Shown here in pieces: positions 57,906-60,085 of a DNA stretch of 64,000 bases. The stretch spans positions 1-64,000 of the IMG/VR virus record IMGVR_UViG_3300020336_000481. One strand, written 5' to 3'. The notes under the pieces are model-generated. The model was not told where the DNA came from, searched no databases, and saw only the letters and a list, made by a program, of their open reading frames with translations. Source of the stretch: a virus. Its lineage: Duplodnaviria; Caudoviricetes. The number at the start of each line of letters is the position of its first letter. The first letter of the stretch is position 1. A program made the translations under genes and the position numbers.

Positions 57906-59072
57906 ATGTCAGAACTATTAGAAGGACGCTGGCAGGATACCAAAAGTGCTCTACTAGAAGGATTACAAGGTACTAAGAAAAGTGTAATGGAAACTACACT
58001 TGAAAATACCCGTAAGTACTTGTCAGAGAGTGCAACAGCTGGTGCAACATCTGCCGGTAACGTCGCTACATTAAATCGTGTGATTTTACCAGTTATTAGA
58101 CGTGTTATGCCAACTGTTATTGCTAACGAAATTGTTGGTGTTCAGCCTATGACTGGCCCTGTGGGACAGATTCACACACTAAGAGTCCGTTATTCGGAAT
58201 CAAATGATAACGTAACAGCAGGCGATGAGGCACTTAGCCCATTCAAAATTGCTACTGCGTATTCAGGTACAGGTACTGATCCAGATGGTAAAGCTAACGC
58301 AACAGCCGCACTTGAAGGTTCAGCTGGTAGAAAACTTTCTATCCAGATCCTAAAGCAAACTGTAGAAGCAAAAACCAGAAAGCTATCAGCAAGATGGACT
58401 TTTGAATCTGCACAAGATGCTCAATCACAGCACGGTATTGATATCGAAGCTGAGATTATGGCAGCTCTTGCACAAGAGATTACCGCTGAGATCGATCAAG
58501 AAATTCTTGGAAGCCTAAGAGGGTTAGCAGGAACTATTGAAACTTACGATCAAGCAGCAGTAAGTGGTACAGCTACTTTTGTTGGTGACGAACATGCAGC
58601 ACTTGCAGTTCAAATTAACAGAACAGCGAACACTATCGCTCAGCGTACAAGAAGAGGTGCAGGTAACTTTGCAGTTGTTAGCCCATTTGCGTTAACAATC
58701 CTACAAAGTGCTACTACTTCAGCTTTTGCTAGAACAACAGAAGGTACTTTTGAAGCACCTACAAACACTAAATTCGTTGGTACATTAAACAACGCAATGA
58801 AAGTGTATGTTGATTCATATGCAGCTGATAATACACCAGTACTTGTTGGTTACAAAGGTTCAAGCGAATCAGACGCAGCAGCGTTTTACTGCCCATATAT
58901 TCCATTAATGAGCAGTGGAGTTGTACTTGACCCAGCAACATTCGAACCTGTCGTGAGCTTCATGACACGTTACGGATATGTTGAGTTGTCAAACACAGCG
59001 TCATCACTTGGTAACGCAGCTGATTACTTAGGTGAAGTTGCAATTACTTCAAGTAATGTAAGCTTCAGCTAA
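57906..59072 (+). CDS. gp23: major capsid protein
   Basis: RRVMP..IA.EIVGVQPMTGPVGQI, EAKTRKLSARWT.E.AQD, AFYCPYIPL, FMTRYG; probable gp21 site L-S-E41. Confidence 0.97.
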   Translation: MSELLEGRWQDTKSALLEGLQGTKKSVMETTLENTRKYLSESATAGATSAGNVATLNRVILPVIRRVMPTVIANEIVGVQPMTGPVGQIHTLRVRYSESNDNVTAGDEALSPFKIATAYSGTGTDPDGKANATAALEGSAGRKLSIQILKQTVEAKTRKLSARWTFESAQDAQSQHGIDIEAEIMAALAQEITAEIDQEILGSLRGLAGTIETYDQAAVSGTATFVGDEHAALAVQINRTANTIAQRTRRGAGNFAVVSPFALTILQSATTSAFARTTEGTFEAPTNTKFVGTLNNAMKVYVDSYAADNTPVLVGYKGSSESDAAAFYCPYIPLMSSGVVLDPATFEPVVSFMTRYGYVELSNTASSLGNAADYLGEVAITSSNVSFS

Positions 59073-59093
59073 TAAGCTAAGTTATACTAACTT

Positions 59094-59123
59094 AAAAAGG
59101 GCGGCTTAGGTCGCCCTTTTTTT
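59094..59123 (+). terminator. intrinsic terminator after gp23
   Basis: GGGCGGC-TTAG-GTCGCCC followed by T7 and preceded by A5. Confidence 0.9.
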
Positions 59124-59151
59124 ATGACTAAAACCCTAACCGAAAGGATTT

Positions 59152-59298
59152 ATGGCTCGTGTTAAATTTAATCCAACCCTAGAAGCACATGAATACACAA
59201 AAAAGAAAACATCAATAGGCGGAGGAAAACATTCCAAAACTATGATGAATAAAAGTAAAAGAAGAAGCTACAAAAAGTATAATGGACAAGGAAAGTAA
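59152..59298 (+). CDS. 48-aa very basic protein (MARVKFNPTLEAHEYTKKKTSIGGGKHSKTMMNKSKRRSYKKYNGQGK), not in the ORF track
   Basis: AAAGGA RBS at 59143-59148, ATG 59152, TAA 59296-59298. Confidence 0.7.
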   Translation: MARVKFNPTLEAHEYTKKKTSIGGGKHSKTMMNKSKRRSYKKYNGQGK

Positions 59299-59325
59299 TT
59301 TTTTTAAATTTTGGTAAAAAAGAGG

Positions 59326-59354
59326 TTGACTTCTGAATAAAAGTTTGCTATATT
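59326..59354 (+). promoter_or_regulatory. sigma70 promoter TTGACT-N17-TATATT with extended -10 TG
   Basis: -35 at 59326-59331, TGc-TATATT at 59346-59354, AT-rich upstream tract. Confidence 0.8.
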
Positions 59355-59360
59355 AAGTAC

Positions 59361-59577
59361 ATAAGCAATAAAAGAGTAATTAACTTTTATTTGTAGTGCA
59401 TCGAAGAGGCCTTTACCAGAAGGGCTTAAGATGACTAGCCAGGGGTGGTACCCAGGGTCTGTAGTAGAAATACGCAGGTTCACATCGCAGTCACTAGCGG
59501 GGTTAGGTTGTACAGAAACAGAATGGTATTCCGGACTGTGCTTGTAGGTGAAACCGAGTCCTACCTACTTTGCTTAT
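59361..59577 (+). ncRNA. unclassified ~217-nt structured small RNA
   Basis: bounded by promoter and terminator; ends pair (ATAAGCAA/TTGCTTAT); several internal hairpins; no ORF with an RBS. Confidence 0.75.
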
Positions 59578-59583
59578 CTTTTT

Positions 59584-59617
59584 AAAAGCCCTAGCATTTA
59601 TTTGTTAGGGCTTTTTT
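59584..59617 (+). terminator. intrinsic terminator closing the small RNA
   Basis: GCCCTAGCA-loop-TGTTAGGGC followed by T6. Confidence 0.88.
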
Positions 59618-59625
59618 CTCTTTTG

Positions 59626-59632
59626 ATAAATA
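59626..59632 (+). promoter_or_regulatory. T4-type late promoter ATAAATA
   Basis: immediately after the terminator, ~93 nt before ATG 59726. Confidence 0.7.
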
Positions 59633-59634
59633 CA

Positions 59635-59708
59635 TATGTCAATATTTAGTGTACCGCTGACAACGGTGGACTTATGCGGAAACCAACCGCGTATGACATA
59701 GAACGTCA
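59635..59708 (+). promoter_or_regulatory. structured 5' leader of the downstream structural operon
   Basis: hairpins TACCG/CGGTG and TATGCGG/CCGCGTA enclosed by TATGTCA/TGACATA. Confidence 0.5.
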
Positions 59709-59725
59709 ATAAAAAGGAGAAAAAA

Positions 59726-60085
59726 ATGGGAAGACCAATTAATAAAAAATATTTTGGTGTTGTCGGCGATAACACACAGCCAACAATAGCAATTAGATAT
59801 CACGATGGATCAGCTACTAGAGAAGGTTATATACTTTCTCAAAGAGGCACAAACAAATTTAACTGTGACAGTGCAGCTGGCTCAGCAAAAGTTTGTAGAC
59901 TTGTTAATGAGACTGCACCTAACGCTGAAGGCGAATGTTCTTTAGTAGGTTACGCAGACGGTGGCACAGCAATTATTCTTAAGAAAATGTTCAATAGAAC
60001 AGCAATAGACTGGAATAGCAATCGTTACAAGTGGACAGTTGAAGACGATTCAACTCAATCATTAATTAGATTAACAGCTATCTAA
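59726..60085 (+). CDS. putative virion protein
   Basis: AAGGAG RBS, late promoter, first gene of a structural run. Confidence 0.7.
   Translation: MGRPINKKYFGVVGDNTQPTIAIRYHDGSATREGYILSQRGTNKFNCDSAAGSAKVCRLVNETAPNAEGECSLVGYADGGTAIILKKMFNRTAIDWNSNRYKWTVEDDSTQSLIRLTAI

Follow-up and report, generated by a model that had tools for sequence, protein, structure and literature searches.

The manA motif was described in 2010 as a riboswitch candidate, drawn with a tentative pseudoknot, and its sources at that time were marine metagenomes, cyanophages and two gamma-proteobacteria (Weinberg et al. 2010, PMC2864571). The 2010 alignment already includes free-standing copies that adjoin tRNA genes. Cryo-EM of five manA RNAs, reported in an unreviewed preprint of July 2026 on in vitro material in 10 mM Mg and on family members other than the one studied here, found closed homo-oligomers in every case: decamers, an octamer and a 60-subunit icosahedral cage, with a pentamer unit common to the decamers and the 60-mer (Ren et al., bioRxiv 10.64898/2026.07.01.735769). 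The cage was presented as the first natural RNA-only icosahedral cage, observed in vitro only, with constructs taken from metagenomes and Photobacterium (bioRxiv 10.64898/2026.07.01.735769). The loop contacts are intermolecular kissing loops in all of the solved RNAs, so that the UGGN:NCCA-like pairing seen in manA is an RNA–RNA contact between protomers (bioRxiv 10.64898/2026.07.01.735769).

The solved RNAs differ in the loops that they use (bioRxiv 10.64898/2026.07.01.735769). An L5-L7' contact is common to the four structures with a four-way junction; the short-P6 RNAs manA_A0F1 and 67AA add L8-L9', whereas the long-P6 Photobacterium RNAs A28C and A767 have L3-L8' and a contact of the GNRA loop L6 with P6' instead. 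L1-L1' is also present in the 60-mer, and an L3-L5' contact is reported in none of the structures. The published constructs carry GUGGUG in L5 and ACCA in L7, the L7 of manA_67AA being UUACCA. The family has thus been known since 2010 and oligomerisation through these same loops was reported in 2026; what we add here is the assignment of three loops of a giant-phage RNA to L3, L5 and L8, tests within clades that find covariation of L3:L8 and L8:L9 but not of L3:L5, and the observation of a clade in which two interfaces share one UGGUA/ACC code.

The RNA is encoded in a 64,000-nucleotide stretch (the window) that is part of a 147-kb IMG/VR record, IMGVR_UViG_3300020336_000481, from an uncultivated giant T4-like phage. 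This phage's major capsid protein, encoded at 57906-59072, shares about 70% identity with its counterparts in PA5oct, GAP32 and related jumbo phages. A first-pass annotation of the window had described three hairpin loops within a small RNA, without recognizing the manA family: TACCA at 59414-59418, and TGGTA twice, in GGGTGGTACCC at 59443-59453 and in GAATGGTATTC at 59521-59531. All three motifs lie at these positions, and all three pentamers prove to be apical loops of helices that homologs support. In manA numbering they are L3 (UACCA), L5 (GUGGUA) and L8 (UGGUA). The pentamers by themselves are common, as any given one should occur about 125 times on the two strands of 64 kb, and the significance of the loops therefore has to come from homologs.

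A default Rfam gathering scan of the window misses manA and reports only a freshwater-2 RNA. In a permissive scan of 59250-59700, 59369-59574 aligns to positions 1-192 of manA (RF01745), the full model, at 54.7 bits (E 2.2e-13 and 1.7e-14 in two scans), which is 0.5 bit under the gathering score of 55.2 bits, an operational cut-off and not a biological feature. Relatives in the same genomic slot lie above this cut-off (L004, 79.9 bits; L233, 69.2; L007, 56.4; L008 and L309, 55.5 each), and an nhmmer profile connects them with the window RNA, which is 74-75% identical to L007 and L008 (73-75% across the relatives that pass the cut-off) and 88% identical to L077. Because relatives with 74-75% identity pass Rfam's own cut-off, the window RNA is, by homology, a member of the manA family, at the edge of the current model. 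The manA architecture is complete, with a P1 hairpin, a closing P2, P3a/P3b, a four-way junction of P4-P5-P6-P7, P8 and P9 (Table 1), and the conserved loop features (L5 GUGGUR and a GNRA L6) and the complementary loop pairs of the family (L3:L8, L5:L7 and L8:L9) are present. The T-box, pRNA, ROOL and GOLLD models give no match to 59250-59700 at E values up to 10. A blastn search of 50,697 deposited phage genomes with the RNA found nothing, and no cultured relative among them thus has a close copy.

Table 1. Features of the manA-family RNA gene and its surroundings (window positions, except in the last row, which gives positions in the loci of relatives).
Feature	Position	Strand	Remarks
48-aa ORF (phrog_17967)	59152-59298		slot between capsid gene and manA RNA
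sigma70-type promoter, TTGACT-17-TATATT	59326..59354	+	TG extension; 10/12 matches; predicted start near 59361
manA-family RNA gene	~59361-59615	+	about 255 nt; own promoter and terminator
Outer closing helix	59361-59368 / 59570-59577	+	5' strand AUAAGCAA, 3' strand UUGCUUAU
P1 hairpin	59372..59388	+	L1 UAAUUAA 59377-83
P2	59393-96 / 59565-59568	+	GUAG / CUAC; closes manA core; RF01745 alignment; G to A with C to U in relatives
P3a	59400-02 / 59430-32	+	
P3b and L3	59408-14 / 59420-26	+	stem GC to CG in 3/7
P4	59435-40 / 59501-06	+	four-way junction 59435..59506, enclosing P5, P6 and P7
P5 and L5	59442-44 / 59451-53	+	L5 GUGGUA 59445-50, first UGGUA
P6 and L6	59455-66 / 59471-81	+	about 11 bp with one bulge; L6 GAAA 59467-70 (GNRA)
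P7 and L7	59486-88 / 59497-99	+	L7 AGUCACUA 59489-96
P8	59510-15 / 59536-41	+	large apical region; inner hairpin GAA-UGGUA-UUC 59521-31
P9 and L9	59544-48 / 59560-64	+	11-nt L9 UGAAACCGAGU 59549-59
Intrinsic terminator	59584..59615	+	13-bp stem, then T run; RNA 3' end
freshwater-2 RNA (RF02980)	59653-59728		61.6 bits; leader of 119-aa gene
119-aa gene	59726-60085	same strand as RNA	downstream
RF01739 aptamers in relatives	L008:3972-4021, L009:4234-4281, L004:4233-4280, L031:4236-4282		

Homologs were collected by three routes: from loci coding for a related capsid protein, by scanning for an exact pattern that included two of the loops, and by a pattern scan on the junction sequence that required no loop. 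Iterated nhmmer profiles then yielded 200 full-length copies. The 141 unique sequences among them fall into the clade of the window RNA (the window's clade, 77 sequences) and a sister clade (64 sequences, 56 of them in alignment A3). The capsid-gene route, with no loop requirement, accounts for a set of 17 full-length homologs. RNAalifold on a global MAFFT alignment of all 141 sequences recovered only part of the fold, owing to misalignment, and was replaced by analysis of each clade separately.

The fold is well supported. A 261-nt stretch is more stable than 200 of 200 shuffles (z -3.9), and double changes occur in 26 of 63 predicted pairs among seven close sequences and in 33 of 58 named pairs among the 56 sister-clade sequences of A3, in which 94.4% of cells are paired, versus 32-44% with the partners slid by one to three columns. 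Compensatory changes fall in P3b, P4, P6, P7, P8 and P9 in the seven-sequence set and, in the sister clade, in all helices except the invariant P2 and P3a; P4 (columns 90-95/160-165) is 99% paired in A3, with three compensatory pairs. The stems of two of the three hairpins noticed at first show compensatory substitutions. The third, P5, is invariant in the first seven sequences and changes from GGG/CCC to GGC/GCC in L061-type relatives. An outer helix, which lies outside the Rfam model, joins both ends of the RNA, and its pairs 2-7 with 218-223 are kept in 5-7 of 7 sequences.

Within this fold, the L3 loop proper is ACCAG (59415-19), with U59414 of UACCA in a weak closing pair. L5 matches the manA consensus loop GUGGUG, L6 is GAAA, GAGA or GCGA in nearly all 141 homologs, and L8 is the second UGGUA (59524-28). 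L1 holds a 6-nt palindrome, UAAUUA (59377-59382), which is found in 28 unique sequences of the window's clade, with UAGCUA in 12 and AAUUAAUU in 7; canonical manA RNAs and the sister clade carry a GACG or GAUA tetraloop in place of the enlarged L1. Such a palindrome would suit an L1-L1' contact, for which it is only suggestive, and it is not significant, as 28% of shuffles of this AU-rich loop also give a 6-nt palindrome.

The RNA has transcription signals of its own. In 116 of the 131 homologs with enough flanking sequence, a promoter with at least 9/12 matches stands upstream at a constant distance from the RNA, and a hairpin followed by a T run lies 3' of the RNA in 81 of 131 by a crude test. 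Two ORFs overlap the RNA (59304-59483 on the minus strand and 59445-59585 on the plus strand), and the substitutions follow the pattern of paired RNA helices. Together, the predicted promoter and terminator show the RNA to be a free-standing gene with separate transcription signals. The position in a 5' UTR that goes with the Rfam type 'Cis-reg', which is an annotation of RF01745 and not a structural criterion, is not what we find, given this promoter and terminator and a downstream gene with a separate leader.

The gene occupies a constant place. The capsid gene lies upstream on the same strand in 103 of the 123 loci with room upstream (median gap 240-390 nt), placing the RNA directly behind a capsid gene in more than 100 giant-phage contigs. 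In the window, the genes downstream are phage structural genes. A 119-aa gene starts about 140 nt 3' of the RNA in homologous loci; in the window, an ATAAATA late-promoter-like box stands between the manA terminator and the freshwater-2 leader of this gene. At least nine related giant-phage loci likewise have a freshwater-2 leader (54-77 bits) ahead of their copy of this gene, which suggests that this motif is a conserved late-gene leader in related giant phages.

The slot between the capsid gene and the manA RNA varies. In several relatives it contains a glutamine riboswitch aptamer (RF01739, 43-55 bits); RF01739 has no match in the window at the gathering score, and there the slot holds a terminator and the 48-aa ORF. 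A strong hairpin with a T run (AAAAAGGGCGGCTTAGGTCGCCCTTTTTTT) follows directly on the capsid stop at 59073-59125; it resembles a terminator of the capsid operon and is missing from the list of the promoter and terminator scan. In L233 the gene immediately upstream of the manA RNA encodes a two-piece (permuted, alpha-type) tmRNA (L233:5282-5613), and in L055 the one immediately downstream encodes a tRNA (L055:4499-4570), which indicates that the manA gene can belong to clusters of small-RNA genes.

In the window's clade, L3, L5 and L8 hardly vary and permutation tests within the clade are flat, so that covariation has no bearing on the loop pairings there; the invariance is in part an effect of ascertainment, given that the first pattern scan required two of the loops. 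The variants that exist are L8 UGGCA in some sequences and, in a few, L3 GACCA or UACCU, which are uncompensated. Two apparent signals in this clade were set aside. Matches of L9 with the 5' internal loop of P8 (GGUUAU:AUAACC and similar) were lost on permutation (z 0.1), and a nominally significant preference of L3 for the 3' flank of the P8 apex (z -3.3 in dG) is not relied on because two or three subclades account for it and it runs into stem strands. Among the 17 homologs found through the capsid gene only, L3 UACCA occurs together with L5 UGGUA in seven, three of which have UGGUA in L8 too, and none of the three pentamers occurs in eight, in which partner loops have changed together.

In the sister clade the loops do vary. 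We used a permutation test on loop letters only, within the clade, in which partners are permuted among distinct haplotypes (64 sequences); it replaced an earlier version with fixed apex windows, in which stem letters had inflated the self-self and L5:L8 signals. Complementarity is significant for L3 with the 3' part of the P8 apex (z 9.0, p 0.0002) and for L9 with the P8 apex (z 5.8 to 6.9, p 0.0002), and not significant for L3 with L5 (z -0.1) or for L5 with L7 (z 0.5). The pairing of L3 with P8 is spelled ACAGA:UCUGU, UAUAGA:UCUGUA, GUAGA:UCUAC, GUAGU:GCUAC, GUAAG:CUUAC, GCAAC:GUUGC, GUAGAG:CUCUAC or ACAAA:UUUGU, and that of L8 (the 5' part of the P8 apex) with L9 is spelled AGGAU:AUCCU, AUGAU:AUCAU, GAGAG:UUCUC or CUGAU:AUCAG. 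Covariation in the sister clade is seen for L3:L8 and L8:L9 and is absent for L3:L5.

Alignment A3 gives a similar picture. L8:L9 (helix 12) has double changes in three of four pairs, with 94% of cells paired, and L3:P8 has double changes in four of five pairs, with only 68% of cells paired, owing to a MAFFT register slip in two subgroups. L5:L7 (helix 7) is 94% paired with one-sided variation and zero double changes; of the 141 homologs, 112 can form a 4-bp L5:L7 match and 29 cannot. The covarying sites for L9 and for L3 are adjacent in the P8 apex of the sister clade (for example, in L018:4735-4976 and L318:4919-5160), and sister-clade RNAs appear to keep on L8 both the L3 and the L9 site, which the preprint describes as alternatives (bioRxiv 10.64898/2026.07.01.735769). 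Both patterns raised in the first-pass annotation, an invariant UGGUA and one that covaries with UACCA, thus turn up in different clades: UGGUA is invariant in the window's clade and is replaced together with its partner in the sister clade.

In the window itself, the most stable loop duplex predicted by RNAduplex is L3:L8 (UACCA:UGGUA, 5 bp, -5.4 kcal/mol), followed by L3:L5 (UACCA:UGGUA, -4.7 kcal/mol). L5:L7 reaches -4.1 kcal/mol, best as GGUGG:UCACU, with an alternative register UGGU:ACUA (59493-96) of 4 bp including a G-U, and L8:L9 reaches -3.4 kcal/mol, best as GGU:ACC, or as UGGU:ACCG (59553-56) of 4 bp with a terminal U-G. The ACC-type loops L9 (ACCG 59553-56) and L7 (CACUA 59492-96), which the first-pass annotation overlooked, compete for the same UGGU. 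The window's L8 UGGUA corresponds in the alignment to the sister clade's L9-binding site and not to its L3-binding site, and the window's L3 (UUUACCAG) carries what is the L7 sequence in canonical manA. As read from these alignments, two interfaces have collapsed in the window's clade, and both now use one UGGUA/ACC code.

We consider it probable that this manA-family RNA uses L3, L5 and L8 as sticky ends to build pentamer-based homo-oligomers. The three loops would pair with neighbouring copies of the same RNA, neither within one molecule nor with tRNA, and the pairing between copies would produce closed assemblies with the pentamer as their unit. The partner of L5 would, by homology, be L7' (UGGU:ACUA); L3 would most likely pair with L8' (UACCA:UGGUA, 5 bp); and the GAAA loop of L6 may dock on P6 of a neighbour. 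L3-L8' is favoured because P6 is long and ends in GAAA, a combination shared with the Photobacterium manA RNAs, and its combination with L5-L7' is favoured because L3:L8 covaries in the sister clade and L3:L5 does not; the L3:L8 pairing is carried over to the window's clade by homology. We infer from analogy with the solved relatives that the contacts of the window RNA are intermolecular, and the L3 partner is proposed on the same footing; any role in infection would be conjectural for the family as a whole. The suggestion in the first-pass annotation that the loops kiss and oligomerise is thus supported by membership in the manA family, by cryo-EM of relatives and by loop covariation in the sister clade. 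The idea of both UGGUA loops as candidate partners of one UACCA loop is not borne out by homology, which assigns each a partner of its own.

The same oligomer logic could act through other partners, with L8-L9' (through ACCG) as in manA_A0F1 and 67AA, together with L3-L5', and with L7 free or weakly engaged. The alignment of the window's L8 with the L9-binding site and the covariation of L8:L9 in the sister clade speak for this arrangement, as do the canonical L7 sequence in L3, the loss of ACC from the window's L7 (AGUCACUA) and the greater predicted stability of L3:L5 than of L5:L7. We nevertheless regard it as unlikely: sister-clade L3:L5 complementarity is no better than permuted, the cryo-EM structures are without any L3-L5' contact, a long P6 accompanies L3-L8' in the preprint, and the window's L8:L9 is just 4 bp with a G-U. 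A different reading, in which the loop pairs are intramolecular pseudoknots that lock a monomer, for example a ligand- or protein-binding RNA, goes back to the tentative pseudoknot and the riboswitch candidacy of 2010 (PMC2864571) and fits the covariation equally well, as covariation cannot separate contacts within a molecule from those between molecules. That the contacts run between protomers in all solved manA RNAs, and that the outer helix, promoter and terminator indicate a free RNA and not a leader, makes a locked monomer decidedly improbable.

A regulatory role in cis, in which the RNA would be a riboswitch or leader that controls read-through of the terminator into 59726-60085, agrees with the cis-regulatory type given to manA in Rfam and with the terminator and same-strand gene that follow the RNA. 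The downstream gene has its own conserved freshwater-2 leader and the ATAAATA box, however, and the terminator is outside the conserved fold of an RNA whose ends are closed by its own helix. The RNA's own promoter and terminator, the separate leader downstream, and the tRNA or tmRNA gene that is a neighbour in some relatives argue against a riboswitch for a fixed downstream gene, and we hold such a role to be very unlikely.

UGGN:NCCA pairing is established for T-box antiterminators, and the first-pass annotation had likened the first TGGTA context, AGGGGUGGUACC, to the T-box and proposed, as one of two alternatives, that the loops capture uncharged tRNA ends. On this reading they would bind the 3' NCCA in T-box fashion and so sequester or sense tRNA. 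At the level of letters the likeness stands, with GGGUGGUACC matching the T-box core and the same pairing logic available, and the RNA gene adjoins a tRNA or tmRNA gene in some relatives (L055 and L233). The segment sits in a 3-bp hairpin and not in an antiterminator bulge, however, and the region 59250-59700, in which RF00230 finds no match at E up to 10, has no specifier stem, nor is an amino-acid gene found downstream. The sister clade replaces both UGGUA loops by unrelated sequences that match other loops of the same molecule and not CCA, the family's own L7 or L3 supplies ACCA, and no tRNA or tmRNA genes were found in the window or in the 147-kb record. Capture of uncharged tRNA ends is accordingly extremely unlikely, and nothing ties the RNA to the stringent response, which had been brought in with it.

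If copies of the RNA do associate through L3-L8', L5-L7' and the self-complementary L1-L1', a closed RNA shell could form in infected cells and serve in the phage cycle, perhaps as a scaffold, a sequestering compartment or a packaged component. The RNA gene, immediately behind the capsid gene, would be transcribed from an early promoter of the host type. We put this forward as a long shot; if true, it would be the first biological setting for the manA cages assembled in vitro.

The roughly 200 related contigs make up a large natural collection of manA RNAs, which are plainly encoded by independent genes at a fixed place beside the major capsid gene. Their loop–loop interfaces have been recoded many times and yet remain complementary, which is evolutionary support for the view that kissing contacts matter in nature. 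The natural interface variants, including L8 regions with both L3 and L9 sites, form a panel in which the choice of interface could be related to oligomer size. The idea of tRNA capture gives way to a more ordinary contact between RNAs.

Among known systems, the T-box (RF00230) shares with the window RNA the ten letters GGGUGGUACC and the UGGN:NCCA pairing logic. It presents them in an antiterminator bulge rather than a hairpin loop, and in the window RNA, which is without a specifier stem or a regulated amino-acid gene, the ACCA partner would be another RNA loop. The phi29 pRNA, ROOL and GOLLD are phage RNAs of which identical copies form rings or cages by intermolecular loop–loop pairing, as is proposed by analogy for the window RNA, to which they have no relationship in sequence or fold; pRNA acts on the packaging motor.

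The Photobacterium RNAs A28C and A767 are closer. They have a long P6 with a GNRA loop, nearly the same P9/L9 sequence (UUGUAGGU...AGUCCUACCU) and a 5-bp L3:L8 complementarity, which is UCAGC:GCUGA in these RNAs and UACCA:UGGUA in the window. They are unlike the window RNA in L1 (GACG), L5 (GUUGUG) and L7 (GACAU), and in their L8, an open loop of 12 nt, the L3 site directly adjoins the 3' strand of P8, whereas in the window a small inner hairpin presents the UGGUA of L8 at a distance of 7 nt from this strand. With the manA family as a whole (RF01745), the window RNA shares the order of its helices (P1, P2, P3a/P3b, the P4-P7 four-way junction, P8 and P9), L5 GUGGUR on a 3-bp stem, a GNRA L6, the complementary L5:L7, L3:L8 and L8:L9, and an occurrence in T4-like phages. 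It differs in an L1 of 7-9 nt that holds a 6-nt palindrome and takes the place of the GACG tetraloop, in an L7 that has lost ACC, and in the recoding of L3 and L8 to UACCA and UGGUA, which leaves two loops with the same pentamer. Where manA has been presumed to be a 5' leader, the window RNA is a predicted free gene with an end-closing helix, a promoter and a terminator, in a fixed place behind the capsid gene of giant phages.
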